Shown here: positions 3,632 to 37,992 of the stretch, one piece after another
Position numbering within the stretch: position 1 is the stretch's first letter
Layout of the letters: every line of letters begins with the position of its first letter
Origin: an uncultured Anaerolineaceae bacterium
Lineage (GTDB): Bacteria; Chloroflexota; Anaerolineae; Anaerolineales; UBA4823
Reading direction: 5' to 3'
Assembly (NCBI GenBank): GCA_964416175.1
Contig: CAYQDF010000006.1
Span: forward strand, 526 to 64,525
DNA: 64,000 nucleotides
Translations under genes and position numbers: made by a program
Notes under the pieces: model-generated
The model's input: the letters and a program-made list of their open reading frames with translations, nothing else
What the model was told of the DNA's origin: nothing
Database searches by the model: none

Positions 3632-3661
3632 CGCTGCGGGGAGACAGATCCCCCCGCAGCG
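3632..3661 (-). terminator. Possible terminator hairpin downstream of gdhA
   Basis: 10-bp GC stem CGCTGCGGGG/CCCCGCAGCG. The U-run on the - strand is not immediately adjacent. Confidence 0.4.
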
Positions 3662-3757
3662 GATCAAGAGACCTCAGGGATGGGAAGATAGCGGCGCTCG
3701 GAGATCCTTATGACGCTCTGAATTTCAGGAATCCCCAGACTCGATTCCCCCTGGGGG

Positions 3758-5044
3758 TTATAACCAGCCGCGCAGCTCCATCGCTTTGACGACGCGCGAG
3801 ATGGCGACCATATAAGCGGCATCGCGCATATAAACCTTTTCACTCTCTGCGGTTTCGACCACGCTGTTGAAGGCAGCCGTGACGTTGGTATCCAGGCGAG
3901 AGAGCACTTCATCGCGCGTCCAGTAATAGTTCATGTCATTTTGGACGCTCTCGAAGTACGACACGGTGACCCCTCCCGCGTTGCACAGAAAGTCGGGGAT
4001 GACGAAGATGCCGTTCCGCTTGAAGACTTCGTCAGCTTCAGGGGTCGTTGGGCCATTGGCGCCTTCCGCGACCATTTTCACACGATCATGCACGCGCTTG
4101 ACTGTCTCGGCGTTGATTTGGCCCTCCAGCGCGCCCGGGATGAGCACATCCGCTTCCTTGGCTATCCACTCATCGCCAGCTTCAATCCTGTATCCGGCCT
4201 GGTGAGCCAGGTCTTTATTGATGGTGCCATAGGTATCTGTAATTGACTGCAAGAAATGCGGATCGACCCCATCTGGATGGCTGACTGTGTAAGGGGCGCG
4301 GTCTTCCCGGTCCCAGTAGGAGACACAGGCGACCTTTCCTCCCAGGATATGCTTAAATCCGATGGCTGCGTATTGGGAGACGTTTCCAAATCCCTGAATT
4401 GCTGCCACTGACTTTGCCGGATCCAGCTTGAGATGTTTCATCGCCTCGCGCACGGTAAAGATCAGTCCAAAGCCGGTCGCTTCTGTGCGCCCGAGGGAAC
4501 CCCCTCCGCCGACTGGTTTGCCGGTGATGACACCAGGGGTATACTGCCCGACCAGTTTTGAGTACTCATCCATCATCCAGCCCATCATGCGCGGGTTGGT
4601 GCCTACGTCTGGGGCGGGGACGTCCTGGCGGGGACCGATGTTGCGCCAGATCTGATCGATCCATCCCCGCACCAGGTTTTCCTGTTCGTGGATGGAGAGG
4701 GTCGCCGGATCGACTGCCACGCCGCCCTTGCCGCCACCCAGCGGGATGTCAGCAACCGCGCACTTCCAGGTCATCCACATGGCGAGCGCGCGCACGGTAT
4801 CCAGAGTCTCGGCGGGATGGAAGCGGATGCCGCCCTTACACGGTCCACGCGCATCGTTATGTTGCACCCGGTAGCCGAAGAACACCCGGATGGTGCCATC
4901 GTCCATGTGGGTTGGGATCATAAACTTGAATTCCCGCATCGGCCAGCGCAACATCTCGGCGACCTGGGGGTCGAGGTTGAGCAACGTCGCGACGTGATCG
5001 AACTGGCTCTGGGCCATCGTGAATGCGTTGATCGTTTCAACCAT
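3758..5044 (-). CDS. gdhA: Glutamate dehydrogenase (Glu/Leu/Phe/Val dehydrogenase family)
   Basis: 428 aa. Catalytic Lys loop IPLGGGKGGVAVDP. Rossmann segment AIQGFGNVSQY. AGGAGA SD before the ATG. Confidence 0.9.
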   Translation of the reverse strand: MVETINAFTMAQSQFDHVATLLNLDPQVAEMLRWPMREFKFMIPTHMDDGTIRVFFGYRVQHNDARGPCKGGIRFHPAETLDTVRALAMWMTWKCAVADIPLGGGKGGVAVDPATLSIHEQENLVRGWIDQIWRNIGPRQDVPAPDVGTNPRMMGWMMDEYSKLVGQYTPGVITGKPVGGGGSLGRTEATGFGLIFTVREAMKHLKLDPAKSVAAIQGFGNVSQYAAIGFKHILGGKVACVSYWDREDRAPYTVSHPDGVDPHFLQSITDTYGTINKDLAHQAGYRIEAGDEWIAKEADVLIPGALEGQINAETVKRVHDRVKMVAEGANGPTTPEADEVFKRNGIFVIPDFLCNAGGVTVSYFESVQNDMNYYWTRDEVLSRLDTNVTAAFNSVVETAESEKVYMRDAAYMVAISRVVKAMELRGWL

Positions 5045-14905: not shown

Positions 14906-15595
14906 GTGCCTGAACAGACGCCCATCACCCTTAACCATTTTACTTTTTTCAAGTTCACCGGCCATTATTACGAACAGCCCCAGGAGGTGCGCAGGCACTT
15001 CAGGCGCGATTTTTTCACGCATGTAAAGCAGACTGCACAACGCACATTCATTTACCAGGTCTTTCCGTTAGGGACGGGGGAGGACTTCATGGTCTGGAGC
15101 GCCCTTCCGATCGAGCAGCCCGGGCTGCCAGGAGATTTCTTCACAGCTTTCGCCAGAGCCACCAGTCCTTTTCGCCCCCTGGCGGAGCCTGTCCAGGCCT
15201 TATGGGGATTCACCCGGCCCTCTCAATATACCCGGACCCGCTCAGCCCAGGAACTGGATCCCTTCAACCCGGTCCGGTGCCGTTATCTGGTCCTGTATCC
15301 ATTCGCCAAGGAAAAGGAATGGTATCTGCTGAGCCAGGAGACCCGCCAGGGCATGATGAACGAGCACATCAAAATCGGCAAAGGTTTCCCAGAAATCCAA
15401 CAGCTCCTGCTGTATTCTTTTGGCCTCCAGGACCAGGAGTTCGTCGTAGTTTACGAAATGGAAGACCTTCCTCAATTCTCGAATCTGGTGTACGAGCTGC
15501 GCCGGACGGAAGCCCGGCGATACACAGAACGGGATACTCCGCTTCACGCCGCTGTTTACCACCCCGAAGACGAGGCTCTCGCATTGTTTGAGTGA
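14906..15595 (+). CDS. hemQ: Coproheme decarboxylase (chlorite dismutase-like HemQ/ChdC)
   Basis: 229 aa, GTG start after GGAGA. YLVLYPFAKEKEWYLLSQETRQGMMNEHIKIG is typical of HemQ. First gene of the heme operon. Confidence 0.85.
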   Translation: MPEQTPITLNHFTFFKFTGHYYEQPQEVRRHFRRDFFTHVKQTAQRTFIYQVFPLGTGEDFMVWSALPIEQPGLPGDFFTAFARATSPFRPLAEPVQALWGFTRPSQYTRTRSAQELDPFNPVRCRYLVLYPFAKEKEWYLLSQETRQGMMNEHIKIGKGFPEIQQLLLYSFGLQDQEFVVVYEMEDLPQFSNLVYELRRTEARRYTERDTPLHAAVYHPEDEALALFE

Positions 15596-15607: not shown

Positions 15608-16591
15608 ATGCAAGTTCCTGAGATCGTTGGGATCCTCTTCATGGCTTATGGCAGCCCCGACTCGCTGGACCAGATGGAACCATATCTGATCGACGTTCGG
15701 GAGGGCCGCCCGCCTACCCCGGAACTGGTGGCGGAAATTCGCCGACGCTACGCCAGCATCGGTGGGCGCTCGCCATTGCTGGATTGGACGAAGGCCCAGG
15801 CGAACGCGGTCGCTGAACTCTTGAACCGGGAACACGCCTCGCAGAGGCTCCACTTTAGGGCTTACGTCGGGATGCGCCACTGGGAACCGCGCATCGGGCG
15901 GGCTGTCGAAAGTATGGCGGCGGATGGGATCCGCCGGGCGATCGCGCTCGTCATGGCCCCCCATAGCTCCCGGATGAGCGTTGGTAAATATTTCGAGCAG
16001 CTCGAGAAAAGCCTCGCGGAGAAGGACGCGGATATCTTATTCGCGCGCATCGAGAACTGGCACGATCATCCCGGTTTGATCGCTGCTCTCGCTGAGAGAT
16101 ATTTCGAAGCCAGGGGGCGTTTCGCCACGGCGAGCGATCCGTACGTGATCTTCACAGCTCACAGTTTGCCAGCCAGGATCCTCGAGGTGGGAGATCCGTA
16201 CGATGCCCAACTGCGGGCGACATCTCGCATCCTGGCGGACCTCCTCGAGCTACGGGATGGGCGCTGGCAGTTCTGTTACCAAAGCGCAGGAGCCAGCGCC
16301 GTTCCCTGGTTAGGCCCGCAGATAGAGGCAGTGATTGAAGAGCTTGCCCAAAAGGGCGAAAAAGATCTCCTGGTAGTGCCGATCGGATTCGTTTGCGATC
16401 ATGTCGAGGTGCTGTACGACATCGATATCGGCTGCCAGCAGATCGCACGCCGCCATGGGGCACACCTGGAAAGGAGCCCCTCCCTGAACACCTCGCCGAC
16501 TTTTATCCGGGCGCTGGCCGACCTGGTCCTGGAAGCTTTGCCGGGCCTGGAACTCGCTCAGAAGAACCCGCGCCACCCACGGGGGTATTAA
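15608..16591 (+). CDS. hemH: Ferrochelatase (likely coproporphyrin ferrochelatase CpfC)
   Basis: 327 aa. MAYGSPDSLD N-terminus, HSLP motif (FTAHSLPARILE), VPIGFVCDHVEVLYDID. Confidence 0.9.
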   Translation: MQVPEIVGILFMAYGSPDSLDQMEPYLIDVREGRPPTPELVAEIRRRYASIGGRSPLLDWTKAQANAVAELLNREHASQRLHFRAYVGMRHWEPRIGRAVESMAADGIRRAIALVMAPHSSRMSVGKYFEQLEKSLAEKDADILFARIENWHDHPGLIAALAERYFEARGRFATASDPYVIFTAHSLPARILEVGDPYDAQLRATSRILADLLELRDGRWQFCYQSAGASAVPWLGPQIEAVIEELAQKGEKDLLVVPIGFVCDHVEVLYDIDIGCQQIARRHGAHLERSPSLNTSPTFIRALADLVLEALPGLELAQKNPRHPRGY

Positions 16592-16609: not shown

Positions 16610-17881
16610 ATGACGATCCTTTGTATTGGTGTCAGCCATCAAACTGGGAGCGTGGTCCTGCGCGAGCGGTTGGCTTTTGATGAGCAAGCCCGGCAGGCTG
16701 CCCTTGCGGAGTTCCGGCAAGGTGGCAGGGACTGCGCGCCTGGTGTCCATGAGCTCGCGATCTTATCGACCTGCAACCGGGTTGAGATCTACGGCGTGGC
16801 TTCCCACGAAGATTTCACCGTGCTTGAATCGTTTCTGGAAAAATCCCGGGGGATCTCCCGGCCCACCTTTTCCCTGTCCCTGTACCGGTACTCCGGCGAG
16901 GAGGCAGTCCACCACATTTTCTCAGTGGCGGCCGGGCTGGATTCCTTGATCCTCGGAGAACCACAAATCCTGGGACAGGTCTCTCGAGCGCTGGAGGTGG
17001 CGCAGAGCCAGGGTGCTGCCGGTAAGGTCCTGACGCGCCTCTTCCAGTCTGCTGTCCATGCCGGGAAGCGTGCCCGAACAGAGACGAGCATCTCGCAGAA
17101 TCCCGCCACAATTTCGTCGATGGCTGTGCGCCTGATCACAGAGATCGTTGGAGATGTCGCCAGCAGCCATTTTGCAGTCCTGGGTGCTGGTGAAATGGCT
17201 GAGCTGGCAGTAGAAGCGCTGATTAAACGCGGCGCGACCCAGATATATGTGGTGAATCGGACCTTGCAGCGGGCACAGGGGCTGGCGAAAAAATGGGGCG
17301 GTCGTCCAGTCGCCTTCGCTCACTTGCCGGAAGTGTTAGAGATCGCGGACGCCGTGATTGCTTCCACTGGTGCGATGCACCCTGTGATCTGTAAAGGAAT
17401 GGTGGAAGAGGCGATGGAAACCCGGCCGAAGCGTCCTCTGGTGATCATGGATATTGCAGTGCCGCGCAACGTTGACCCCCAGGTCGCAGAGATCCCCGGA
17501 GTCACCCTTTACGACATGGATGCGCTTTGGGACTGCCTGGAGGATTCGCTGGCCCTTCGCGCCCGGGAGGTCCCCCACGTCATGCAGGTGATAGAGGAGG
17601 AGCGCGCTGAATTCATGAAATTTCTTACCGAAATGGAAGTCAACCCGCTGATCGCTGAGCTGCGCAGACAGGCTGACCAGATCAGACTCCGGGAACTCGA
17701 GAAGACCTTCCGGCGGATGCCGGACCTGACGCCGGCAGACAAGGAACGCGTGGCCGCGTTGACGAAGAGCATTGTCAAGAAGATCCTTCACGCGCCGACG
17801 GCCTGCCTGCGCTCTCAATTAAATGGCCCCGATGCCGCAGATTATGCGCACCTTACCCGCCAGCTGTTTGACCTGGATTGA
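16610..17881 (+). CDS. hemA: Glutamyl-tRNA reductase
   Basis: 423 aa. LSTCNRVEIY catalytic Cys motif and NADPH Rossmann segment VLGAGEMAE. Confidence 0.95.
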   Translation: MTILCIGVSHQTGSVVLRERLAFDEQARQAALAEFRQGGRDCAPGVHELAILSTCNRVEIYGVASHEDFTVLESFLEKSRGISRPTFSLSLYRYSGEEAVHHIFSVAAGLDSLILGEPQILGQVSRALEVAQSQGAAGKVLTRLFQSAVHAGKRARTETSISQNPATISSMAVRLITEIVGDVASSHFAVLGAGEMAELAVEALIKRGATQIYVVNRTLQRAQGLAKKWGGRPVAFAHLPEVLEIADAVIASTGAMHPVICKGMVEEAMETRPKRPLVIMDIAVPRNVDPQVAEIPGVTLYDMDALWDCLEDSLALRAREVPHVMQVIEEERAEFMKFLTEMEVNPLIAELRRQADQIRLRELEKTFRRMPDLTPADKERVAALTKSIVKKILHAPTACLRSQLNGPDAADYAHLTRQLFDLD

Positions 17882-17886
17882 GCCGA

Positions 17887-18801
17887 ATGCCAAAGCTGAT
17901 TTTCGCCACTCGCCCCTCGAAATTAGCCCGTACTCAGACGGAATTTGTGATCGATCGTCTCAAGCCAGTCTGGCCCGACCTGGACCTCCAGGTGCGCGTG
18001 ATCCACACCCAGGGAGACCGCGACCGTGCTCGCCCGCTCCCCGAGATCGGGGGAAAAGGCATATTCACCCAGGAGTTGGAGGCAGCTCTGATCGCTGGTG
18101 AGGTCGACGCGGCAGTTCATTCCTTGAAGGACCTGATGGTCGAGGACAGCCCTGGGCTGTGTGTTGGGGTGATCCCGGCAAGAGAGGATGCGCGCGACGT
18201 GCTGATCTCGCCGTCTGGCGGCAGCCTGGATGACCTTCCATCGGGCGCGGTTGTCGGGACTTCCAGCCTGCGCCGCCAGGCGCAGCTCCTGGCTTATCGC
18301 CCGGACCTGAAGATGTCGCCGGTGCGCGGCAACGTGGAGACCAGGGTCAGGCAGGTCCAGGAGGGAAGGTACGACGCCATCGTCCTGGCAGCTGCGGGAG
18401 TGATCCGTCTCGGCCTGGCTGAACTGATCACCCAGTATCTGCCATTCGAGGTCATGCTGCCTGCACCCGGGCAGGCTGCTCTGGCGGTCCAGTGCCGCGT
18501 CGATGATCTTGAAACACCGGTTTTCTTATCCGTGCTGGAGGATCCAGCAGTTCGCGCAGCGACCACTGCCGAGCGGGCCTTCCTGGCGGGCTTGGGCGGC
18601 GGATGCGCCCTGCCCATCGCCGCCTATGGGTATGCGGATCAGGATGGGATCATCACCCTGGAGGGGCTGGTCGCCTCCCTGGATGGGAGCCGCACGATCC
18701 GACTTTCAGCCTCTGGGAAGGAGCCGGCTGCCCTGGGAGCCGAGCTGGCAGCTGCTGCGCTGGCTGAGGGAGCAAAGTCTCTGCTGGCGGTGCAGGTATG
18801 A
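17887..18801 (+). CDS. hemC: Hydroxymethylbilane synthase (porphobilinogen deaminase)
   Basis: ATG 17887 chosen (MPKLIFATRPSKLARTQTE). The TTG at 17878 in the track is also possible. GNVETR and SLKD motifs present. Confidence 0.9.
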   Translation: MPKLIFATRPSKLARTQTEFVIDRLKPVWPDLDLQVRVIHTQGDRDRARPLPEIGGKGIFTQELEAALIAGEVDAAVHSLKDLMVEDSPGLCVGVIPAREDARDVLISPSGGSLDDLPSGAVVGTSSLRRQAQLLAYRPDLKMSPVRGNVETRVRQVQEGRYDAIVLAAAGVIRLGLAELITQYLPFEVMLPAPGQAALAVQCRVDDLETPVFLSVLEDPAVRAATTAERAFLAGLGGGCALPIAAYGYADQDGIITLEGLVASLDGSRTIRLSASGKEPAALGAELAAAALAEGAKSLLAVQV

Positions 18802-19568
18802 ACCTGGAGGGCAAGCGCATCCTCATCACTCGCCCCGCCTCGCAGGCGGGTGGATTCATACGGGCACTGGCGTCAGCCAAAGCGCTGCCAGTTTGTTTCC
18901 CGACTATCCAGATTGCCCCGCCGGCAGACCTGACCGCCCTGGACCAGGCGCTGTCGCGCCTGGAGTGCTATGCCTGGCTGGTGCTGACCAGCGCCAACGC
19001 AGTCCGGGCCGTTTGGGAGCGGATGGAAGTATTAGAGATTCACCGCCTTCCCCGACAGTTGCGAGTCGCTGCGATCGGTCCGGTGACTGCCGCTGCCCTG
19101 GAAGGCCACGGCTGCCAGCCAGACCTGGTACCCTGCGAATACACCGCCGAGGCGATACTCCCGGGGCTGGGGGATATCAGGGGTCTCTGGGTGCTGCTGC
19201 CGCGCGCGGAGCTGGCGCGCGAGGCGCTTCCGGATGGCATCAACGCAGCCGGGGGCGTGGCTCACGTGGTTGTGGCTTACCGGACCCTGCCTGCTGTGCC
19301 TGATCCGCAGAGCATCCAGGCTTTGGCCGAGGGCATCGATATCATCACCTTCACCAGCTCGTCGACCGTGCGCAATTTCGTCGACCTGGTGCGCAGGGCC
19401 GGATTTGACCCCCTCCACCTGCCTGGCGAACCGCTGATCGCCTGTATTGGGCCGATCACAGCCCGGACTGCCCTGGAGGCAGGCTTTCGACCCGGCGTTG
19501 TGGCAGAGCAATACACCGTAGAAGGATTGGTTGGTTCTCTATTGAGGTATAAAAATGAAACTGGTTGA
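18798..19568 (+). CDS. hemD: Uroporphyrinogen-III synthase
   Basis: 256 aa. ATGA overlap with hemC. HEM4-like two-lobe pattern (ILITRP..., [18 protein letters not shown]). Confidence 0.85.
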
Positions 19569-20643
19569 TACGCTGGACAGCAAACTGCCGGTGGGGCGGC
19601 GCACCGCGGATGCCGCACCTGACCCCGGCTGGAGACCGCCTCTTCCGGTCCATCGCCCACGCCGCCTGCGGCTGACTCCGGAAATCCGGACCCTCGTGCG
19701 GGAGACGGAAGTCTCCCCGCGGGATTTGATCTATCCCCTCTTCGTGCGTCCCGGGAAAAACGTCCGGCAGGAGATCCGTTCAATGCCAGGGATCTTCCAG
19801 TGGTCTGTAGACCGCCTGCCGTACGAAGCCGAATCCATCGCCAGGTTGGGCCTGCCAGGGGTGATCCTGTTCGGGATCCCCCTTCAGAAGGACCCGATCG
19901 GCCTGGAGAATTTTGATCCAGAGGGTATCGTCCACCAGGCCATTCGAGCGATCAAGGCTGCCGTCCCGAAGCTGCTCGTGATCACAGACATCTGCCTGTG
20001 CGAATACACCGATCACGGTCACTGCGGCCTGTTGAACGCCAGCGGCGATTTGCTGCATCTTCACCTACCGGAGGGATACGTTCTCAACGATGAGACTCTG
20101 GAAGTGTTGGGGCGGACGGCCCGTTCGCATGCCGAGGCGGGCGCCGACATCGTCGCCCCGAGCGGCATGATCGACGGCATGGTGGCCGCGATCCGGTCTG
20201 CCCTCGATCAAGCCCGATTTGAGCACATACCGATCCTTTCTTATGCTGTTAAATATGCTTCGGCTTTCTACGGGCCTTTTCGTGAGGCAGCCGAGTCCCC
20301 CCCGAAGTTCGGCGACCGCCGGTCACACCAGATGGATCCCGCGAACGCGCGCGAAGCGCTGCGAGAGGTGGCGCTGGACGTGGCGGAGGGTGCAGACATC
20401 TTGATGGTCAAGCCAGCCCTGCCTTATCTGGATGTGCTCCACATGCTCAGGCAGGCATACCCGCAGCTGCCTCTGGCCGCGTACAGCGTCAGCGGCGAGT
20501 ACTCGATGATCAAAGCCGCTGCCGCGAACGGCTGGCTCGACGAGCGGACAGCGGTCCTGGAGGCGTTGACCGCCATCAAGAGGGCCGGCGCGGACTTCAT
20601 TCTGACCTACCACGCAAAAGAGGCAGCGGGATGGCTGGCGTGA
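19555..20643 (+). CDS. hemB: Porphobilinogen synthase (ALA dehydratase)
   Basis: 362 aa. RPRRLR..IR.LVRET, cysteine-rich Zn site [14 protein letters not shown], active-site Lys regions (MVKPA). Confidence 0.92.
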
Positions 20644-21836
20644 GTCCTGTTCCCCTCACCGGGCAGGCAGCTGCAGAAAGAAGCTACCACGACCAGCGCA
20701 TGCTCCAGGCCGATTTCACCCGCGCTCCTTTCACCATTGCCTGGGAAGTAACGCGGGCGTGCGCCTACGCCTGCAAGCACTGCCGGGCTGATGCCCAGCA
20801 TGTCCCCCACCCAGACGAGCTGACCACTGCTGAGGCCTTCGGACTGATCGACAACCTGGCTCGCTTCGGCAGCCCGATCCTGGTCTTCACCGGCGGCGAT
20901 CCCATGATGCGCCGGGACCTGTTCGACCTGATCGCGTACGCAGCCGGGCGGGGTCTGCGCTGCTCGCTGACGCCCACTGCCACCGCGCTGCCCACTCTGG
21001 CGCGTCTGGAGAAAGCCCGGGAAGCAGGCATCCGGCGGATTGCCCTCAGCCTGGATGCGCCATCGCCCGGCGCACATGATGAATTCCGCCAGGTCGAAGG
21101 TTCCTGGGAGCGCACGATGAAGATCTTGCACCGCGCGCAGGATGCCGGGCTGAGCGTGCAGGTCAACACCACCGTCACCCGCTTCAACGTGGATTCGCTG
21201 CCCGAGATGGTGCCATTTGTCAAAGCCGTGCAGGCAGTACAGTGGTCGGTGTTTTTCATGGTGCCCACCGGGCGCGCACAGGCGGCCTGGATGATCTCCC
21301 CTGAGGAGCACGAGCGCACGTTCCACTGGTTGTACGACCTGTCTCGGGAAGCGCCGTTCGATATTAAAGCAACTGCCGCGCCGATGTACCGCCGGGTGGC
21401 TATCCAGCGTCGGCGTACAGAGGCGGACGACGGTGAGGAAATCACCTTCCAGGGAGCCGGGTTTCAATTCGCCGACGGGCTTGACCGCCCAACGAAAGGG
21501 GTCAATGACGGCAATGGTTTCCTCTTCATCTCTCACCGCGGTGAGATCATGCCCTCGGGATTTCTTCCAGTCCCGGCTGGCAACGTGCGCACCGACGACG
21601 TGGTCCAGGTCTACCAGCAACACCCCCTGTTCCTGGATTTGCGGAATCCGGCAAAATTGAAAGGCCGCTGTGGCGTTTGCGAATACCGCGAGGTGTGCGG
21701 CGGGCAGCGCGGGCGCGCCTACGGTGTGACCGGGGATTACCTGGAGACCGACCCCGCCTGCCTCTACCAGCCCGAAGCTTATCGGAGGTCCGGACAGCCC
21801 ACCTCAGGTCTGCCGGGAGGAACTGCTTGGAAATGA
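20631..21836 (+). CDS. Radical SAM/SPASM enzyme, AhbC/AhbD/NirJ-like, embedded in the heme operon
   Basis: 401 aa. CAYACKHC (CxxxCxxC) cluster motif. [10 protein letters not shown]-terminal SPASM-type [18 protein letters not shown]. Overlaps the hemB stop, and its stop overlaps the hemE ATG (ATGA). Confidence 0.8.
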
Positions 21837-22921
21837 AGGCATCGCCGGCATTGTCTGTTCAGACAGGTTCGGTGGACGCGCCTCCCGAACCGCAGGGTCG
21901 ATTCCTGCGCGCCTGCCGACGCCTGCCTGTGGACGCCACGCCAGTCTGGTTTATGCGCCAGGCCGGGCGCTACCTGCCGGAATACCGCGCCATCCGTGCG
22001 CGCTTCAGCCTGCTGGAGATCACCCGGCGACCGGAGGTCACGGCGGAGGTCACCCTGCAACCCGTTGATATCCTTGGAGTGGATGCAGCGATCTTGTTCG
22101 CCGATATCCTGCTCCCGCTCATCCCGCTTGGGCTGGACCTGGAATTCGTTTCCGGCGAAGGTCCTGTGATTCGAAACCCTGTCCGCAGCGCCGAAGGTGT
22201 TGCCCGCCTGCGGGAGGTGGACGTCCAAAGCGATCTTGGGCACGTCTTTGAGGCGATCCGCCTGGTCAGGCGGGAGCTGGAGGGGCGCGGCATCCCGCTG
22301 ATCGGCTTTGCGGGCGCGCCTTTCACGGTGGCTTCCTACATCGTAGAGGGCGGCCCTTCGAAGGATTTCCTGCATACCAAGCGGCTGATGTACACCTCCC
22401 CGGAGACCTGGCACCATTTGATGGAGAAGATCTCCAGTACCCTGGCGGCCTACCTGCTCTCCCAGGCGCAGGCGGGAGCGCAGGCAGTGCAGGTTTTCGA
22501 TTCCTGGGTGGGTGCTCTCAGCCCCGGGGATTATGTCCGCTATGCGCAGCCTTATTCCAGGCGAGTCCTTGCCGCAGTCCAGGCTGCCAATGTGCCGGTG
22601 ATCCACTTCGGTACGGGGACGGCAACCCTGCTGCAATCGATGAAGGAGGCAGGCGGCACCGTGATCGGCCTCGACTGGCGCATCCCGCTCGACGCAGGCT
22701 GGCAGACCGTTGGTTATGACCTTGCCGTGCAGGGAAACCTCGACCCGGTCCTGCTGTTCTCTCCCATGACCCTGCTTGGGGAGCGGGTTAAAGAAGTGCT
22801 GTCTCTGGCGGAAGGCCGTCCAGGGCATATCTTTAACCTGGGGCATGGCATCCTTCCAGAAACGCCGGTCGAAAATGTCCGGGCAGTTGTGGATCTGGTG
22901 CACGAATGGAGCGCCCGGTGA
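21833..22921 (+). CDS. hemE: Uroporphyrinogen decarboxylase
   Basis: Start moved to ATG 21833 (MKASPAL...), in frame with track ORF 21677. PVWFMRQAGRYLPEY signature. Confidence 0.9.
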   Translation: MKASPALSVQTGSVDAPPEPQGRFLRACRRLPVDATPVWFMRQAGRYLPEYRAIRARFSLLEITRRPEVTAEVTLQPVDILGVDAAILFADILLPLIPLGLDLEFVSGEGPVIRNPVRSAEGVARLREVDVQSDLGHVFEAIRLVRRELEGRGIPLIGFAGAPFTVASYIVEGGPSKDFLHTKRLMYTSPETWHHLMEKISSTLAAYLLSQAQAGAQAVQVFDSWVGALSPGDYVRYAQPYSRRVLAAVQAANVPVIHFGTGTATLLQSMKEAGGTVIGLDWRIPLDAGWQTVGYDLAVQGNLDPVLLFSPMTLLGERVKEVLSLAEGRPGHIFNLGHGILPETPVENVRAVVDLVHEWSAR

Positions 22922-24336
22922 AGCGGCTGGTCGTCGTGGGCGGAGGGATCGCCGGGCTGGCGGCAGCGTATTACGCGAGTCGGCTGTTCACCGATCGCCG
23001 CCAGGTGACCCTTGTCGAGCGAGAAGATCGTTGGGGAGGCAAAATTCGCACCGATCGCGTGGACGGGTTTGTCCTGGAAGCCGGGCCTGATACTTTTATC
23101 GCAGCCAAACCTTGGGCGGTGGACCTTTGCCGCGAACTTGGCATCGGGGAACGGCTGCGTGGCACCAACCCCCACAAGAAAAATACCTATATCTTGCGCA
23201 GAGGCCAGCTGCATCCCCTGCCTGGCGGGCTGTCGATGATGATCCCGACCCGGTTCGGAGACCTGGTCCGCAGTGGTTTAATTTCCTGGCCGGGCAAACT
23301 GCGCATGGGGCTGGATGTTCTGCTGCCCCCTGCCAATTGGAGCAGCTCTGAAGACGATGAGAGTATTGGGGAATTCGTGACCCGCCGCCTGGGGAGAGAG
23401 GCCTACGAAGCGCTGATCGAGCCGCTGATGAGCGGGATCTATGCCGGAGACGGCGACAGCCTGAGCCTCCTTTCCACGTTCCCTTATTTACGGGAGCTGG
23501 AGGCCAGACATGGAAGCCTGGTCCGGGGAGCACTGGCTGCGCGTGCCCGGCAGCCGAAGAATGGAAAAGGCCCAGCCAGCGGATCACGCAGCCTTTTCCT
23601 GACGCCACTTTCAGGGCTTGGGGAGATCGTGGAGACTCTCGTGGAGGTGCTGGAAGAGAGGGAGACGGGCATGATCATCGGGAATGGAGCCAGGCATCTT
23701 GAGAGGGTAGAGGGCGGTTACCGCCTGGAGCTGGAGGATGGATCCTGTCTGGAGGCGGAGGCTGTGATCCTGGCGACGCCAGCTTACATTTCCGCGAACC
23801 TCCTGGCAGGGGTTGCCCCTGGTCTGGCGGGGGAGCTGCGCGCCATCGAGTATGCGACGACAGCCACGGTCTCTCTGGGATACGAGGAAAGCGACCTGCC
23901 CCGGCCGCTGGACGGCTACGGCTACGCCATTCCTCGCCGGGAAGGGAGGAAGGCGCTGGCCTGTACCTGGACTTCGACCAAGTTCCCGCACCGCGCCCCA
24001 GCAGGAAAAGCTTTGCTGAGGGTGTTTATCGGCCGCGCCGGACAGGAGGATATCGCCTGGGATGAGGCGAGCCTGGAAGAGATCGCCAGGGAGGAACTCC
24101 GTGAGACGCTCGGGATCACAGCCAGGCCGCTCCTCACCCGGGTAACTGTCTGGGAGCGGGCAATGCCGCAGTATACGCTCGGACACGCTGCTCGCCTGGA
24201 CCGGATCAATGCCGGGCTGGCCGGACTCCCTGGCCTGGCTCTGGCCGGGAACGGATACAGGGGGATCGGTATCCCGGACTGCATCCGTTCTGGCGCGCGG
24301 GCGGTCGAGCAGCTGACAGGAGTGACCATCGGATGA
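22906..24336 (+). CDS. hemY: Coproporphyrinogen/protoporphyrinogen oxidase, HemY (CgoX) type
   Basis: 476 aa. FAD dinucleotide motif [15 protein letters not shown]. The C-terminal [13 protein letters not shown] is typical of HemY. Confidence 0.85.
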
Positions 24337-25616
24337 GGATCGAGAAATCCATCCAGCTCTTTGCGCAGGCTCGGCAGCTGCTTCCCGGCGGAGTCGATTC
24401 ACCGGTGCGAGCTTTTCGCGCTGTCGGGGGGCAACCCGTTTTCATCGAACGGGGCGCGGGGCCGTACCTGTATGACGTGGACGGCAACCGCTACATTGAT
24501 TATGTCCTTTCGTGGGGCCCTCTGATCCTGGGGCACGCGCATCCTGCTGTGGTCTCCGCCCTTAAAGAAGCCGTCGGGCGCGGGACGAGCTTCGGCGCGC
24601 CGAATCCGCTGGAGATCGAACTGGCGCGCTGGGTGCAATCCTTTATGCCCGGCATCGAGATGCTCCGCTTCGTTAACTCCGGCACCGAGGCCACGATGTC
24701 CGCCCTCCGGCTTGCGAGAGCGTTCACCCGGCGCGATAAGATCGTCAAGTTTGAAGGCTGCTACCACGGGCACGCGGATATGCTCCTGGTTCGGGCTGGT
24801 TCGGGCGTCGCCACGTTGGGGTTGCCCGACTCGCCCGGAGTGCCGGCGGCGACTGTCCAGGATACCCTTGTAGCGCGCTACAACGACCTCGAATCGGTCG
24901 AGCAGCTCTTTCGCCAGCATCCAGAGGAGATCGCGGCGGTGATCGTGGAACCAGTGGCTGGCAATATGGGAGTCGTGCCGCCCCTGGATGGCTTCCTGAA
25001 CGGTTTGCGTTCGCTCACCGCAGCACACGGCGCCCTGCTCGTCTTCGACGAAGTGATGACCGGATTCAGGGTCCATCCAGGCGGCGCTCAGGGGTTGTAC
25101 GGTATCCAGCCTGACCTGACCACTCTCGGAAAAGTGATCGGGGGCGGACTGCCGGTCGGCGCATACGGCGGGAGGCGGGAGATCATGGAGATGGTGGCGC
25201 CCGCGGGCCCTGTCTATCAGGCCGGTACGCTGTCCGGCAATCCCCTGGCGATGGCGGCGGGGATCGCGACGCTGGTAGAATTAGCCCGACCAGAAACCTG
25301 GATTCAGCTGGAGCGAACCAGCGAGCAGCTGGCAAATGGTTGCGCTCGAGCTGCCCGGGAGGTGGGCGTACCCGTGCGGCAGACGCGCGTCGGAACGATG
25401 TTCTCGCTGTTCTTCACGGAAGCGCCTGTTTATGACTGGCAGAGCGTCAAAGCCAGCGACATTGACCGGTTCGCACGATTCTTCCGGGCGATGCTGGCGC
25501 GCGGTATCTACCTGGCCCCCTCCCAGTTCGAAGCAGGGTTCGTCTCGACTGCCCACCGTCCGGAAGATATCCAGGATACGGTCGCAGCTGCGCTCGATGC
25601 GTTTAAGACACTCTAA
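24333..25616 (+). CDS. hemL: Glutamate-1-semialdehyde 2,1-aminomutase
   Basis: 427 aa. ATGA overlap with hemY. PLP lysine region [17 protein letters not shown]. Confidence 0.95.
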
Positions 25617-25690: not shown

Positions 25691-25726
25691 AAAAAACGGG
25701 CAGCAGTGCTGCCGCCCGTTTTATTT
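25691..25726. terminator. Bidirectional intrinsic terminator between hemL (+) and the malectin/SGNH gene (-)
   Basis: ACGGGCAGCA/TGCCGCCCGT stem (one mismatch) flanked by A6 upstream and TTTTATTT downstream. Confidence 0.75.
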
Positions 25727-25762: not shown

Positions 25763-28444
25763 TCAAGGATTTCCGCTGCTGGTGACTTCGAGGGCGGCGA
25801 GGGCGGCGCGCAGGGTGGCGGTGGTGAAGTCGATGTTGAGTTGTCCATCGGAGACGGCGACGACGAAAGTCTCGGCGATCGCAATGTTGGCGCCGCCCGC
25901 AGCGACGAAGATGTCGTAGTTGTCCAGGAGCAGGCTGCCTTCGATGGCCACGTCGAAGCGGCGCTGGCCGGGGGCGGAGACCTGGATCTCGGCGAAGTGC
26001 AGGGTGACGGCGTAATTGCCGGCGGGCAGGTTATCGAAGAGGTACGAGAAGGTGGTGTTGGAGCGCTGGACCTGGAAGAGGGGGTCGTCGGCGGTGCCGG
26101 CGATGGGGTTGGTGGTGGTGATGGGCTTGCCGGCGGTGTAACCGAAGCCGCCGGGGGAGTAGGCCTGGTCGGCGATGAAGAGGGCTCCGGAGGAAGCGGT
26201 GTAGGCCGCGCCGCCGGCATTGATCCGGTAGGCCACGGCAGGGGTATTAATTCCCTGGCCGGAAAGTGAGACAGAAAGGGAAGGCTCGTCCGGGTCATTG
26301 CTGTTGAGTTGCAGGCTGCCGCTGTAGGTGACCGCAGAGATCGGGGAGAAGCGCAGCGTGACGACCTGGTCAGCGCTGGGGGCGACGTCGAATGGGGTCG
26401 CCGGTGAGACAACTGTGAAAGCCGAGTCGGAGGATGTCAAGCTCGAGACAGTAAGCGTTTGGGCACCGAGATTGGAGATGGTCAGGGTGCGGTCGGTGGA
26501 AGAGCCGACCACCACCTGGCCAAAGTCCAGAGAAGTCGGGGTGATAGAAATGTCCGGCTCGTTTGCAGGCGGCTGGACGCCGTTACCTCGAAGCGACAAT
26601 TTATACGTGGGTTCATCGGGATCGTTGCTGGCGATCTGGAGACTGCCAGTCTGCGTTCCCGAGGCGGAAGGGGTGAACCGCACAGTAACGGGAACGCTGT
26701 TCCCCGGGGGGATCGTGAAGGGCGCCGCCGGGGATACGACCGTGAAAACGGGGTTGGTCGTGGACAGCCCTGAGACGTTCAGGTTGGCTCCGCCGACGTT
26801 AGAGATCGTGATGGTCCGTTCGCTGAATGTGCCCAAGTTCACATTACCGAAGTTTATGTTTGCGATGAACGTGGAGAGGGCATTCCTCCATACCACAGCC
26901 ATCTTAGAGTAGCCTGTGGCGTAAGGGTGGATGCTGTCCCAAAAATCTCCAGTCGGCTGCTTCTTATAGATGAGACCGGCCCCATTTTCCATGTCGACGA
27001 TGACGATCTGATCGCCATTGGCGATCCGGGTCTGCGCCATGGCTGCTACATTGTTGTTAAACTCAGTAGTTGTCGCGCTGTATTTCGTGCGGTTGATAAT
27101 GCGCGCCAGGACCACGGTGACCACGGTACCGGTGTTGCCTTCGAAGCGGTCGACCTCGTTGAGGATGTTTTCCACGTCAGTGGGGCTTGGGCTGAGGGAG
27201 TTGGTGCCGATGTGCAGCAGGACGGCGTCGGCAGGGTTGGCCATCAGCCAGTTATAGATGTTAGCTGCCACCTGGTCGTCCCGCCAGCCAGCGTGCCCTT
27301 CGTGATCGGGATCGAAGTCTCCGTAAAACTCGCCGTTGACCAGGCTGCCGACGAAGTCCACCTGGTGACCGGCGTTGACGAGGCTCCCCCACAGGTCACG
27401 CCGGTAGGAGATGTACTTTGTCGGATCGATCTCCCCCGAGTTGCTCCCGACCGTGATCGAATCGCCGACCGGCATGATGCGGATCAAAGAGGAGCTGGCG
27501 ATGTCCGGGACGTCTGCCGGCGGTTGGATGCCGTTGCCGGACAGGGGAACGCTCAAGGTCGGTTCGTCCGGGTCATCGCTGGCGATCTGCAGGTCGCCGT
27601 TCTGCGGACCGGTCGCGACTGGCGTGAAGCGGACCGTGACGGGGGTGCTGTTCCCGGGAGTAATGGTGAATGGGACAACCGGGGCGACGACCGAGAAGGC
27701 CGGGTTGGTGGTGGTCAGGGCGGAAACGTGCAGGTCGAGTGTTCCCTGGTTCGATACGGTCAGAATCAGATCGCTGGAGGAACCCAGGAACACGTCTCCG
27801 AAGTTGAGAGCGGCCGGGGAGGCGGCGATATCCGGAGCTGGCTCGGGCGTCCCGCTGCTGGTGACTTCGAGGGCGGCGAGAGCGGCACGCAGGGTGGCGG
27901 TGGTGAAGTCGATGTTGAGTTGTCCATCGGAGACGGCGACGACGAAAGTCTCGGCGATCGCAATGTTGGCGCCGCCCGCAGCGACGAAGATGTCGTAGTT
28001 GTCCAGGAGCAGGCTGCCTTCGATGGCCACGTCGAAGCGGCGCTGGCCGGGGGCGGAGACCTGGATCTCGGCGAAGTGCAGGGTGACGGCGTAATTGCCG
28101 GCGGGCAGGTTATCGAAGAGGTACGAGAAGGTGGTGTTGGAGCGCTGGACCTGGAAGAGGGGGTCGTCGGCGGTGCCGGCGATGGGGTTGGTGGTGGTGA
28201 TGGGCTTGCCGGCGGTGTAACCGAAGCCGCCGGGGGAGTAGGCCTGGTCGGCGATGAAGAGGGCTCCGGAGGAAGCGGTGTAGGCCGCGCCGCCGGCATT
28301 GATCCGGTAGGCCACGGCGGATTGCAGCTCATCAGGTGGGATGCCTTGAACCTCTTCGGAAGCTTCGGCCGGCGTGAACATTCCTAAGAACCCGGCGACA
28401 AGGAAAACGAGGCTCATTAAGTGCAGGATTTTTTTCGATTTCAT
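25763..28444 (-). CDS. Secreted multidomain protein: malectin - Ig-like - SGNH/GDSL hydrolase - 3x Ig-like - malectin
   Basis: 893 aa. Signal peptide MKSKKILHLMSLVFLVAGFLGMFTPAEA. SGNH blocks (MPVGDSITVG, LLHIGTNS, DSIHP). Four LNFG..L.VSN.G...L.VS.L...NP.F.VV repeats. Identical malectin-like modules at the N- and C-termini. Confidence 0.8.
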   Translation of the reverse strand: MKSKKILHLMSLVFLVAGFLGMFTPAEASEEVQGIPPDELQSAVAYRINAGGAAYTASSGALFIADQAYSPGGFGYTAGKPITTTNPIAGTADDPLFQVQRSNTTFSYLFDNLPAGNYAVTLHFAEIQVSAPGQRRFDVAIEGSLLLDNYDIFVAAGGANIAIAETFVVAVSDGQLNIDFTTATLRAALAALEVTSSGTPEPAPDIAASPAALNFGDVFLGSSSDLILTVSNQGTLDLHVSALTTTNPAFSVVAPVVPFTITPGNSTPVTVRFTPVATGPQNGDLQIASDDPDEPTLSVPLSGNGIQPPADVPDIASSSLIRIMPVGDSITVGSNSGEIDPTKYISYRRDLWGSLVNAGHQVDFVGSLVNGEFYGDFDPDHEGHAGWRDDQVAANIYNWLMANPADAVLLHIGTNSLSPSPTDVENILNEVDRFEGNTGTVVTVVLARIINRTKYSATTTEFNNNVAAMAQTRIANGDQIVIVDMENGAGLIYKKQPTGDFWDSIHPYATGYSKMAVVWRNALSTFIANINFGNVNLGTFSERTITISNVGGANLNVSGLSTTNPVFTVVSPAAPFTIPPGNSVPVTVRFTPSASGTQTGSLQIASNDPDEPTYKLSLRGNGVQPPANEPDISITPTSLDFGQVVVGSSTDRTLTISNLGAQTLTVSSLTSSDSAFTVVSPATPFDVAPSADQVVTLRFSPISAVTYSGSLQLNSNDPDEPSLSVSLSGQGINTPAVAYRINAGGAAYTASSGALFIADQAYSPGGFGYTAGKPITTTNPIAGTADDPLFQVQRSNTTFSYLFDNLPAGNYAVTLHFAEIQVSAPGQRRFDVAIEGSLLLDNYDIFVAAGGANIAIAETFVVAVSDGQLNIDFTTATLRAALAALEVTSSGNP
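25783..26249. repeat. Intragenic direct repeat, copy 1 (C-terminal malectin module)
   Basis: 467 bp, identical to 27852-28318 (offset 2069) apart from 2 mismatches near 25811-25818. Confidence 0.9.
27852..28318. repeat. Intragenic direct repeat, copy 2 (N-terminal malectin module)
   Basis: Partner of 25783-26249. Compared line by line. Confidence 0.9.
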
Positions 28445-35305: not shown

Positions 35306-35311
35306 GATTTG

Positions 35312-35421
35312 TGTGGAGGCAGTGATCCACAGGCTTGGACTGGTCGCACGACCTCCAAGGGAGGGGAGCCTGCGGGGAGCCAATTGCGAAACCGGCCACA
35401 GGTCGGTTTCGTTTGCTTTTT
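35312..35421 (+). ncRNA. Candidate small RNA or cis-regulatory leader of about 110 nt, unclassified
   Basis: Bounded by the promoter above and an intrinsic terminator. Internal helix UGGAGG/CCUCCA (35314-35319 / 35352-35357). G-rich repeat GGGGAGCC x2. No ORF. Confidence 0.4.
35388..35421 (+). terminator. Intrinsic terminator
   Basis: GAAACCGGCC-ACA-GGTCGGTTTC hairpin (one G-U pair) followed by GTTTGCTTTTT. Confidence 0.75.
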
Positions 35422-35685: not shown

Positions 35686-37992
35686 ATGAAACGGCTCGTT
35701 TCTTTGTTCATATTGCTAGCCCTTGTAGCCGGACTGTTCGCGATGCCAGCCCTATCCGGTCCGGTTTCTGCGGGCAATATCTCTTCCAAGGATAGAACCG
35801 TAGACCTGATCGTCAAGACCGATGGGGCCAGCAGTTCGGTAATCAGCAAAGTCAATGCGCTGGGAGGTACAGTAAAATACGCCTATAAGAACGTCCCGGT
35901 CCTGGCGGTCAGAATTCCAGTGGATAACTACCTGGCGCTGCTGAACACCCCGGGGGTCTTGACAATCGTGAAGGACCGGCTGATCTCACTGAGCGCAGAG
36001 GTCGGGTTGAAGGAAAAGCCAGCCCCCGAATCGTATCTGGTGCAGGACGCGGCGGGCATCGCCGTGAAAGCCCTGGATCCGAAATCTCTGGACCTCGCCG
36101 CACTCCCGGAAGGTTACGCGAACTTTATTTACACTGGCGCTATCGACGTCTGGGAAGCGACAGACTTTGGCGCGGGCACCGTGGTGGCGGTAGTTGACAC
36201 GGGCACAGTCCCGAATGTCTGCCTTGCCCACGCAGTGATCGGCGCGCCGGGATTCCCGGATGGCTACAATGCCACCGGCGACGGCGTTCCCGCGACCGAT
36301 CCGCTGAATCACTGGCACGGCACACACGTGGGAGGTGTGATCGCTTCGGCCTGTGCGCTGGATTTCACGAGCGATCCCGGCGATCCGCTCTACCAGGCGA
36401 TCTCTGCCTACCTGCCGTGGTCGGTCGATTTCGTCCCGATCTTAGGCCAGGCGCCGCTCGCCCAGCTTTACCCGGTGAAGGTCTTTGACGTGACTGGCGG
36501 TTCGACGCCCACCTCGGTCATCCTCGATGGGCTCGACCACCTGCTGACTCTCAAGCGGGATGGTCTTTTGGATGTTGATGTGGTGAACATGAGCCTCGGC
36601 GGTTCATCGCTCTACGATGGCAAGGATATCTTCGACACATTCTTGCTCGAATTCCGCAAGGAGCACATCCTGGTCGTGACTTCCGCCAGCAACGATGGGC
36701 CGATCCCGAACAGCATCGGCTCCCCGGCCACCTCCTTCCGGACGCTCGCCGTTGGGGCTTTGGATTATGCACCGTCCTCCCGCGTTCTCTATGAATACCT
36801 GGGCCTCATCTCTGGCCTTGGATCAGGCCAGGGGATGGTGATGCGGCCGACGGATGAAGTGCGGGTGACGAATTTCTCCAGCCGAGGTCCCATGAGTGAC
36901 GGACGCATGGGCCCGGACATCTCCGCGCTGGGTTTGTGGAACTTCCACGCCGGCCCGCAAAATGAACTGCGCTGGGCGGGTGGGACCTCGTTCTCCTCCC
37001 CCACCGTGGCAGGCGGCGCTGCGCTGATCAACTCCTACTACGAGAACAAGCACGGCTCGGATACGCCGATCCATCGCTGGTATAAATCCCTCCTCAAATC
37101 GGCGGATCCCAGCGTGGTCGGCAGCAGCTGGCAGGGAGCGAACGACGTCGGATTCGGCGCCCTGGACATGGTCGCCGCGCTGAAGACCTTCCGCAATCCG
37201 CCAGTCCTCATGGATTACCCGGTCTACACCGGCGAACTCGCGCCGAGCATCCTCGGCGATCCTGTCAAGTTCCAGACGGACGTTTATGAGAGCTCCACGA
37301 TCACTCTGAACCCGAGCGAGACGCACACCGCGGTCTTCTCCATCGCCCCGTTCACCAGCAAGGTGACCATCGAGTTCTTCGATATCGTCGCGCCGGACAA
37401 CTCGGCGTACGCGTACTGGCCGAACGCCCTCGAGGTCCACGTCCAGAGCGCCAAGCGCACGGCTGTAGCCCACCCGGTTGGCCTCTACTGGTATCCCTTC
37501 GCTTACGGGGATGCCTTCTCCATTGAGATCGAAGACGGTCCGTGGACTGTGGCGGGCACTCCCTGGACATACCAGCCCATGGAACCTGGCTTGATGAAAG
37601 TCTCCCTGGTGGGCGACTTCTCGAACGAGTCCCCGGTCAGCTTCAAGATGCGCGTGACGCGGGAGAACGATGGCCTCAAGCGTGGCAGGCTGCTGGCCAG
37701 CTCCGACATCGGAATGGGCGATGCGTTCGTCATCCCGGTGGATGTCCCTGCCGGGCTCAGCTCGGTCACTTTCGACACGGTCTTCACCCGGAACTGGACG
37801 AAGTTCCCCACCAGCGACATCGATATGCTCATCTTCGATCCGGATCTGAACCTGGTCTCGATCGACGGCGCAACCCTGAACGCGCCGGAGCGGGCTGTCA
37901 TCGAGAATCCCGCAGCTGGAACCTGGTACATCTACATCGAAGGATTCGAGATGTACCGGAAGGATCACTTCAAACTCTGGATGAAGAAATAG
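35686..37992 (+). CDS. Secreted S8 (subtilisin-like) serine peptidase with C-terminal pre-peptidase-like domain
   Basis: 768 aa. Signal peptide. Catalytic triad motifs VAVVDTGT, HGTHVGG, GGTSFSSPTVAG. Confidence 0.9.
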   Translation: MKRLVSLFILLALVAGLFAMPALSGPVSAGNISSKDRTVDLIVKTDGASSSVISKVNALGGTVKYAYKNVPVLAVRIPVDNYLALLNTPGVLTIVKDRLISLSAEVGLKEKPAPESYLVQDAAGIAVKALDPKSLDLAALPEGYANFIYTGAIDVWEATDFGAGTVVAVVDTGTVPNVCLAHAVIGAPGFPDGYNATGDGVPATDPLNHWHGTHVGGVIASACALDFTSDPGDPLYQAISAYLPWSVDFVPILGQAPLAQLYPVKVFDVTGGSTPTSVILDGLDHLLTLKRDGLLDVDVVNMSLGGSSLYDGKDIFDTFLLEFRKEHILVVTSASNDGPIPNSIGSPATSFRTLAVGALDYAPSSRVLYEYLGLISGLGSGQGMVMRPTDEVRVTNFSSRGPMSDGRMGPDISALGLWNFHAGPQNELRWAGGTSFSSPTVAGGAALINSYYENKHGSDTPIHRWYKSLLKSADPSVVGSSWQGANDVGFGALDMVAALKTFRNPPVLMDYPVYTGELAPSILGDPVKFQTDVYESSTITLNPSETHTAVFSIAPFTSKVTIEFFDIVAPDNSAYAYWPNALEVHVQSAKRTAVAHPVGLYWYPFAYGDAFSIEIEDGPWTVAGTPWTYQPMEPGLMKVSLVGDFSNESPVSFKMRVTRENDGLKRGRLLASSDIGMGDAFVIPVDVPAGLSSVTFDTVFTRNWTKFPTSDIDMLIFDPDLNLVSIDGATLNAPERAVIENPAAGTWYIYIEGFEMYRKDHFKLWMKK

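Follow-up and report, generated by a model that had tools for sequence, protein, structure and literature searches.

A probable AhbD-type, oxygen-independent coproheme decarboxylase encoded beside a HemQ-like gene in a heme operon of an uncultured Anaerolineales bacterium

We examined a 64,000-nucleotide stretch of DNA (contig CAYQDF010000006.1, positions 526 to 64,525, assembly GCA_964416175.1; hereafter the window) from an uncultured Anaerolineaceae bacterium of the order Anaerolineales, in which a gene for a radical S-adenosylmethionine (SAM) protein lies between hemB and hemE in a heme biosynthesis operon. We propose, at a probability of roughly 80%, that this gene encodes an AhbD-type, oxygen-independent coproheme decarboxylase placed beside the oxygen- or peroxide-dependent enzyme HemQ. 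The proposal is based on sequence comparison and is carried by the family placement of the protein, its cysteine pattern, its position in the operon, gene fusions among its relatives and its accessory distribution in otherwise conserved operons. An earlier prediction made from the DNA sequence alone (hereafter the original prediction) had put forward an oxygen-independent substitute for HemQ, an option that the homology, the conserved operon position and the fusions described below favour.

The 401-residue open reading frame (ORF) and the three motifs first quoted for it are all present (Table 1), with CAYACKHC at residues 44-51, FFMVPTGRA at residues 208-216 and a 12-residue C-terminal motif at residues 347-358. 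The original prediction had assigned the protein to the AhbC/AhbD/NirJ group, and hidden Markov model (HMM) scores, pairwise identities and a tree bear this out and point to the AhbD branch specifically. In a scan against NCBIfam, the protein passed TIGR04053 (453.3 bits, cut-off 395, model positions 2-366 of 366), and the second-best model was TIGR04545 (rSAM_ahbD_hemeb, the AhbD 'heme b synthase'), which it matched over positions 2-339 of 339 with 354.6 bits. The models for NirJ2 (235.9 bits), NirJ (161.4 bits), AhbC (160.7 bits) and NirJ1 (153.7 bits) all failed at cut-offs of 500-650 bits, and no HemN model was seen among the best 25 of the 47 NCBIfam matches. The propionate decarboxylation first ascribed to AhbC does not hold, since this enzyme takes off acetate side chains (PMC13564367). 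By BLASTP, the protein is 42% identical to the AhbD of Desulfovibrio vulgaris and 40.5% identical to that of Methanosarcina barkeri over about 350 residues; its identity is 44-47% to haloarchaeal AhbDs, 41% to the Archaeoglobus AhbD, 25% to MftC and 22% to PqqE. The AhbD references used here are sequences that we rebuilt out of the alignment given as a supplement by Fix et al. 2023 (PMC10452713). Several close homologues are labelled 'AdoMet-dependent heme synthase' by the Joint Genome Institute.

An exhaustive homologue search was condensed to 150 diverse representatives, from which a neighbour-joining tree was inferred together with the references. This tree contained a full-SPASM group that includes the D. 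vulgaris and M. barkeri AhbDs, and a cysteine-poor group that holds every crenarchaeal, Archaeoglobus and haloarchaeal AhbD as well as the window protein. A phylogenetic placement had been suggested for this protein; the tree puts it with the archaeal AhbDs, and its HMM scores for NirJ and AhbC are far lower. The representatives nearest to archaeal AhbDs (Halorubrum, 66% identity; Archaeoglobus, 74%; Sulfolobus, 62%; Aeropyrum, 50%) all pass TIGR04053 at 443-488 bits and all fail TIGR04545; therefore, the uninformative name given by NCBI covers the non-methanogenic archaeal AhbD.

The cysteine pattern agrees with this placement in detail. Cys44, Cys48 and Cys51 are invariant in 56 aligned homologues, as are all cluster ligands and the GGDP SAM-binding motif, and the protein's C-terminal half contains only four cysteines (347, 350, 356 and 377), which form CX2CX5CX20C. 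According to Fix et al. 2023, the eight-cysteine SPASM motif is complete, with two auxiliary clusters, in AhbDs from methanogens and from sulfate reducers, whereas non-methanogenic archaeal AhbDs keep only CX2CX5CX20-38C and one auxiliary cluster (PMC10452713). CX3CX2C and CX2CX5CX20-38C occur in every AhbD of that study, the second motif in all 39 compared (PMC10452713), and the window protein has both. The cluster-I ligands of M. barkeri AhbD (C223, C256, C274 and C324) correspond to Ala, Val, Ser and Gln in the window protein; the last of these, Gln359, is invariant in 120 close homologues. We predict that the protein holds two clusters, not three. The 'SPASM motif' of the original prediction stands for the half that would bind auxiliary cluster II; the cluster-I cysteines are absent, and Pfam SPASM (PF13186) does not match the protein. 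An AlphaFold2 model (predicted local distance difference test 84.8, predicted template modelling score 0.85) has a SPASM/Twitch radical SAM fold, with PqqE, SuiB, SkfB, BlsE and anSME as the nearest solved folds. PqqE is also the best sequence match in the PDB, and since no AhbD structure has been solved the fold search adds the fold class only.

The radical SAM gene is the seventh in a ten-gene operon ordered hemQ-hemH-hemA-hemC-hemD-hemB-rSAM-hemE-hemY-hemL, where rSAM denotes the radical SAM gene; all genes are on the forward strand and are separated by gaps of at most 18 nucleotides (nt) or overlap. The gene is encoded together with the genes for making coproheme (hemE, hemY and hemH), as would fit an AhbD. 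Overlapping stop and start codons had been described on both of its sides and are seen in the sequence: the hemB stop TGA (20641-20643) falls within the radical SAM ORF, 13 nt past its ATG, and the radical SAM stop TGA (21834-21836) shares ATGA with the hemE ATG (21833-21835). A GAGG sequence can be read 7 nt 5' of the radical SAM ATG. These overlaps suggest that the gene is translationally coupled with hemB and hemE.

We collected 80 genome loci via the radical SAM protein, a set hence chosen by the gene itself, of which 43 span hemA to hemL. The loci that match the window best all belong to Anaerolineales or other Chloroflexota, with 70-78% protein identity. In all 67 Chloroflexota loci where both genes are visible, hemB lies directly 5' of the radical SAM gene. 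The co-occurrence with hemQ and hemY that had been proposed as a check was determined for local operons: a HemY-type oxidase accompanies the radical SAM gene in 43/43 hemA-to-hemL operons, and hemQ does so in 19, which carry hemQ, hemH and hemY, often in the order rSAM-hemQ-hemE-hemH-hemY. In many sister operons hemQ directly adjoins the radical SAM gene. Another 21 of the 43 loci have hemY without hemQ or hemH locally, and three have hemH and hemY. Because heme cannot be made without a ferrochelatase, the fact that hemQ and hemH are both missing locally gives no information on the remainder of the genome, and in these 21 loci both genes probably lie elsewhere. Separately, two ORFs of about 230 residues 3' of hemL were considered as hemQ candidates and rejected: the one in locus L001 is an isochorismatase by Pfam, and the one in L020 does not match the window hemQ and, from its sequence by itself, may be a regulator.

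A second set of loci was fetched via hemB and is free of selection by the radical SAM gene. In this set the gene follows hemB in L084, L088, L089 and L090, and operons of the same order without it occur in L087, L098, L118 and L081. On gene order, the operon is conserved and the radical SAM gene is an accessory element inserted into it, which is the pattern to be expected of a conditional isoenzyme. Absence from syntenic operons had been named as evidence against the idea of a HemQ substitute; such absence was found in these four loci, and it bears against the idea only if they belong to heme-making anaerobes.

About 40 of the 80 Anaerolineales heme operons with the radical SAM gene also carry tandem genes for small membrane proteins of about 125 and 110 residues, both assigned to Pfam DUF4491, after hemE or after the radical SAM gene. 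Examples are found in L055 (12256-12630 and 12694-12957), L063 (7765-8118 and 8229-8492) and L024 (11155-11508 and 11622-11894), and the first paralogue has a conserved 'KGHAPANPxNPRH...DLLKREP' tail. There is no DUF4491 copy in the window, and we found no mention of the domain in the literature. These two proteins may work with the terminal heme enzymes as a membrane partner that has gone unrecognised.

Gene fusions among homologues bear on the substrate. In P0130 (49% identical to the window protein), the radical SAM domain is followed by a ferrochelatase, an architecture present in at least 13 clusters with 67-100% identity, those with a source name coming from Ktedonobacteraceae. P0287 has the reverse order, ferrochelatase then radical SAM, which suggests an independent fusion event. 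In P0154 (48% identical) the radical SAM domain is joined to a HemY-type amine oxidase, and among more distant, full-SPASM relatives it is fused to AhbA/B-type siroheme decarboxylase domains. On one 63-kb contig, a HemY-type oxidase gene lies directly 3' of the radical SAM-ferrochelatase gene with no hemQ within 10 kb; together these two genes are a compact module for the three steps from coproporphyrinogen to heme. The fusions point to coproheme as the substrate, because ferrochelatase makes coproheme and AhbD consumes it, and we regard those with ferrochelatase as the strongest new evidence presented here on this point.

Other fusions were seen in the same protein families. Three homologues of 538-540 residues (P0302, by Pfam scan, and P0328 and P0375, by precomputed domains) have an N-terminal hemerythrin domain on the radical SAM part, and P0151 (537 residues) has a C-terminal pyridoxamine-5'-phosphate-oxidase-like domain. 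Such domains may have been added to an oxygen-sensitive enzyme to sense oxygen or iron, or to bind heme or flavin. P0285, P0286 and P0289 (763-778 residues) are ferrochelatases with an N-terminal FAD/NAD(P)-binding oxidoreductase domain (Pyr_redox_2 / NAD_binding_8); P0286 is named Ktedonobacteraceae, a lineage that also has the radical SAM-ferrochelatase fusion.

The pathway in which the enzyme would act is indicated by the remaining genes of the operon. Of the set for the coproporphyrin-dependent (CPD) route, hemY and hemH pass curated cut-offs (the hemY product scores 322.6 bits with TIGR00562, above 97.85). The product of the hemQ-like gene passes Pfam Chlor_dismutase and is rejected by both NCBI HemQ models; its better score of the two, with HemQ_actino, is 91.8 bits where 235 would be required. 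Among solved structures it is best matched by the coproheme decarboxylases 9mhq and 6xub, and it is nearest to those of the actinobacterial type. The presence of a HemQ, taken as given in the original prediction, is thus probable from the Pfam domain and the structural matches, and unproven where the NCBI cut-offs are concerned; HemQ of Chloroflexota looks poorly covered by present models. The substrate specificities of CgoX/CpfC and PgoX/PpfC are not separable here from sequence alone. ChdC/HemQ uses H2O2 and the iron of its own substrate, without SAM or Fe-S clusters, and HemY-type oxidases normally use O2 (PMC10965808).

The substrate, the chemistry and an aerobic/anaerobic division of labour between the radical SAM protein and HemQ we infer by homology, with the mechanism taken from work on M. 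barkeri AhbD (PMC10452713). HemE, HemY and HemH would make coproheme within the operon. The [4Fe-4S] cluster of the CX3CX2C motif would then reductively cleave SAM to a 5'-deoxyadenosyl radical, which could take a hydrogen off a propionate of coproheme (iron-coproporphyrin III). This side chain would then lose CO2 and one electron, the latter leaving through the C-terminal [4Fe-4S] cluster, and become a vinyl group. Carried out once on each of rings A and B, the reaction would give protoheme via a monovinyl intermediate, without O2 or H2O2. The last step could thus be performed by HemQ where an oxidant is present and by the radical SAM enzyme under anoxia, for example to supply heme for NrfHA.

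Several points weigh against this assignment. The window protein lies under the TIGR04545 equivalog cut-off (354.6 vs 500 bits); this model appears limited to the full-SPASM AhbD type, because close relatives of archaeal AhbDs fail it too (247-346 bits). Support for the cysteine-poor clade is moderate, with a bootstrap of 103/200 in a crude neighbour-joining analysis of a reduced taxon set, and an exact-bipartition bootstrap on 152 taxa gave 19/50; since the long PqqE branch draws in the Archaeoglobus pair, we treat the tree as supporting evidence only. The reference AhbDs stem from text read by optical character recognition with a few errors, and the archaeal ones come without their first 60-90 residues. 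At the position of M. barkeri Cys324 the Anaerolineales clade has Gln, in contrast to Ser in nearly all other members. The fusions alone leave the order of steps unfixed, and the absence of ahbA/B/C holds only for the scanned ORFs of the window. Neither biochemical nor genetic tests of a CPD-linked bacterial member turned up in the searchable literature.

The single auxiliary cluster, the Gln of the Anaerolineales and the DUF4491 pair in about half of the sister operons could also indicate that bacterial CPD-linked members of TIGR04053 form a distinct anaerobic terminal module instead of being plain AhbD orthologues, passing electrons to a membrane acceptor or acting on another intermediate, which we consider unlikely. 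Somewhat harder to sustain is a HemN/CgdH-like role, in which the protein would convert metal-free coproporphyrinogen III to protoporphyrinogen IX under anoxia, with HemY and HemH acting in the protoporphyrin order. The propionate-to-vinyl chemistry is identical, the gene adjoins hemE, whose product makes coproporphyrinogen, and the HemY-type fusion P0154 would join consecutive steps. However, the two characterised AhbDs, of D. vulgaris and M. barkeri, have the iron complex as their substrate, and archaeal AhbDs of the TIGR04053 type act after iron has been inserted at the siroheme stage (PMC13564367, PMC10452713). The recurrent ferrochelatase fusions, in both orders, would join consecutive steps only with coproheme as the substrate, and the best 25 of the 47 NCBIfam matches included no HemN model. 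Another role on tetrapyrroles, either NirJ/AhbC-like removal of side chains for a modified heme or a non-catalytic, HemW-like heme chaperone, is suggested by the relationship of the family to NirJ and AhbC and by the recruitment of radical SAM relatives as heme chaperones (PMC10114771). We judge it very unlikely, given that the NirJ, NirJ1/AhbC and NirJ2 models score far under their cut-offs (about 154-236 vs 500-650 bits), that no nir or ahbABC genes are among the window ORFs scanned against Pfam, that invariant cluster ligands and GGDP indicate an active enzyme, and that a fixed place among core heme genes in 67/67 loci indicates the main pathway.

The original prediction also allowed for an anaerobic replacement of HemY, which would take six electrons from coproporphyrinogen III without oxygen to give coproporphyrin III. 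The usual oxidant of HemY-type enzymes is O2, so that an anaerobic counterpart is required at some point (PMC10965808), but ring oxidation is not known from any member of this enzyme group, the known oxygen-independent enzyme for the step is the FAD (flavin adenine dinucleotide) protein CgoN (PMC10965808), and CgoX of Staphylococcus aureus is reported to be active both aerobically and anaerobically (PMC12670364). Moreover, hemY is present in all 43 operons, is fused to the radical SAM domain in P0154 and lies directly 3' of a radical SAM-ferrochelatase fusion gene; because hemY travels with, and is fused to, the radical SAM gene, the two look like partners, not alternatives, and this option appears highly improbable. 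We give hardly any credence to a SPASM-type maturase of ribosomally synthesised and post-translationally modified peptides that stands in the heme operon by chance. The nearest solved folds are indeed peptide-modifying enzymes (PqqE, SuiB, SkfB and CteB-like), but identity to these is 12-20% only and they are merely the nearest available while an AhbD structure is lacking; in addition, no precursor peptide gene is present, the cluster I of anSME, SuiB and CteB (PMC10452713) is missing from the window protein, and the heme-operon position is conserved across loci.

The preferred reading, an AhbD-type coproheme decarboxylase, is in line with what the heme field has described from genome comparisons, so that the novelty implied for this arrangement by the original prediction does not stand. 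In reviews from 2020-2026, AhbD is named as the enzyme of the last CPD step in some organisms, and its gene is said to co-localise with hemY, hemH and hemQ (PMC7242693, PMC10548856, PMC10114771, PMC13564367), and an 'AhbD-like' anaerobic step is drawn in the CPD route by Layer and colleagues (PMC10114771). A full-text literature search returned no paper naming TIGR04053, and only reviews for 'AhbD-like' or 'oxygen-independent coproheme decarboxylase'. The identity of TIGR04053 with the AhbD type that has one auxiliary cluster, the ferrochelatase fusions in two orders and the presence/absence pattern in Anaerolineales operons are points that we did not find stated in the literature; they refine the known picture and do not change it. 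Anaerobes and facultative anaerobes that use the CPD route need another way to finish heme, since HemY and HemQ use O2 or H2O2, and an AhbD-type enzyme would fill the last step, as the field already assumes. The window offers a clean example, a nitrite-ammonifying member of the Anaerolineales with a probable HemQ and the radical SAM enzyme encoded in one operon. The practical gain is modest: a probable heme synthase lies behind the name 'TIGR04053 family radical SAM/SPASM protein'.

Table 1 Features of the heme operon and the nrfHA genes in the window (coordinates are those of the window).
Feature	Position	Strand	Details
hemQ-like gene opening the operon; probably encodes a coproheme decarboxylase (ChdC) of the chlorite-dismutase family	14906-15595	+	Pfam Chlor_dismutase 136 bits
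hemH, ferrochelatase (coproheme maker in the CPD route)	15608-16591	+	Pfam Ferrochelatase 293 bits; TIGR00109 245.7 bits, cut-off 124.6
hemA	16610-17881	+	Pfam GlutR
hemC	17878-18801	+	Pfam Porphobil_deam
hemD	18798-19568	+	Pfam HEM4
hemB	19555-20643	+	Pfam ALAD
Shine-Dalgarno-like sequence AAAAGAGG	20616-20623	+	within the hemB end; stops 7 nt before the radical SAM ATG
Gene for a probable radical SAM heme synthase of the AhbD type with a single auxiliary cluster (TIGR04053 family)	20631-21836	+	401 residues, ATG start
CX3CX2C radical SAM cluster motif (Cys44, Cys48, Cys51)	20760-20783	+	read from the sequence
CX2CX5CX20C motif (Cys347, 350, 356, 377), predicted auxiliary [4Fe-4S] cluster II site	21669-21761	+	
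hemE, uroporphyrinogen decarboxylase	21833-22921	+	Pfam URO-D 421.6 bits; TIGR01464 423 bits
hemY, HemY-family FAD oxidase (CgoX, coproporphyrinogen oxidase in the CPD route)	22906-24336	+	Pfam Amino_oxidase 194.7 bits
hemL, glutamate-1-semialdehyde aminomutase; last gene of the operon	24333-25616	+	Pfam Aminotran_3 262.7 bits
Strong hairpin, 13-bp stem, flanked by A and T runs	25693-25722	.	between hemL and a convergent gene
nrfH	41910-42386	+	four CxxCH motifs; TIGR03153 153 bits, cut-off 134.2
nrfA	42302-43687	+	Pfam Cytochrom_C552 438 bits

Neighbouring genes were named by Pfam and NCBIfam scans (Table 1). The products of hemA, hemC, hemD and hemB (16610-20643) form the common trunk from glutamyl-tRNA to uroporphyrinogen III. 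The operon is flanked by a divergent corA at one side and a convergent gene at the other, where the hairpin is a probable bidirectional terminator that closes the operon; no promoter-like site and no Rfam element were found ahead of it. A Pfam scan of window ORFs of at least 200 residues, covering most of the window up to its last ~8 kb, gave no resemblance to ahbA/B, ahbC or nir. The nrfHA genes noted previously were both found, and as context the multiheme nitrite reductase NrfHA creates a demand for heme under anoxia. Directly 5' of nrfH lies a short homologue (227 residues; 41063-41746, forward strand) of biopterin-dependent aromatic amino acid hydroxylases, and directly 3' of nrfHA a polyphosphate cluster (43809-49633, forward strand) encodes, one after another, two PPK2, one PPK1 and an HTH-CHAD protein.

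Convergent with the heme operon is a gene for an 893-residue protein (25763-28444, reverse strand) with malectin, several HYDIN/ASH-type Ig-like and GDSL lipase domains. About 280 nt 5' of a 768-residue subtilase gene (35686-37992), Rfam RF03169 identifies a c-di-GMP-II-GAG riboswitch aptamer (35306-35404, forward strand) with 44.6 bits, the gathering score being 40. An 85-nt tRNA-Gly(GCC) called by ARAGORN (62968-63052, reverse strand) is inside an opposite-strand ORF of 542 residues (61795-63423) and may be a false positive. Positions 2001-4000 have a G+C content of 53%, compared to about 60% elsewhere, and 2743-3757 contains no ORF of at least 200 residues.

Compared with known systems, the window protein is closest to AhbD (EC 1.3.98.6), which has been characterised from M. 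barkeri and D. vulgaris. It has in common with these enzymes CX3CX2C, the C-terminal CX2CX5CXnC, and the TGGDP, QINTT/QVNTT and PTGR blocks, and the same reaction from coproheme to heme is expected. Unlike the window protein with its one auxiliary site, the two characterised AhbDs have an eight-cysteine SPASM domain with two auxiliary clusters, and they act after AhbA/B/C in the siroheme route, whereas the window gene lies among hemE, hemY, hemH and hemQ. NirJ and AhbC (NirJ1) belong to the same superfamily branch of tetrapyrrole-modifying radical SAM enzymes; didecarboxysiroheme loses its propionates by NirJ and its acetates by AhbC, and their genes lie with nir or ahbAB, which were not found in the scanned window ORFs. 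CgdH/HemN is likewise a radical SAM enzyme and turns the ring A and B propionates to vinyls without oxygen, but its substrate is metal-free coproporphyrinogen, it has no SPASM/Twitch domain and it binds two SAM. ChdC/HemQ would have the same substrate and product as the radical SAM enzyme, with an unrelated fold of the chlorite dismutase family.

The non-methanogenic archaeal AhbDs (haloarchaea, Archaeoglobus and Crenarchaeota) fall in the same HMM family as the window protein, and both have lost the cluster-I cysteines, with PSGFLP and CGGS/CGGQ replacing PCGYLP and CGGC. The replacements are Ala/Val/Ser/Gln in the window protein and mostly Glu/x/Ser/Ser in archaea, and the coproheme would come from siroheme in archaea and from coproporphyrin via HemY and HemH in the window operon. 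In Haloferax volcanii, deletion of ahbD impairs anaerobic growth only and is rescued by heme, and a ChdC-domain protein serves aerobic growth (PMC5746218); from its haloarchaeal relatives we infer that this AhbD belongs to TIGR04053. H. volcanii thus possesses both AhbD, which it requires under anaerobic conditions only, and a ChdC-type protein, and the window operon likewise pairs the radical SAM gene with a HemQ-like gene. HemQ and AhbD are regarded as an aerobic/anaerobic isoenzyme pair, as are HemF and HemN (PMC10114771, PMC10548856).

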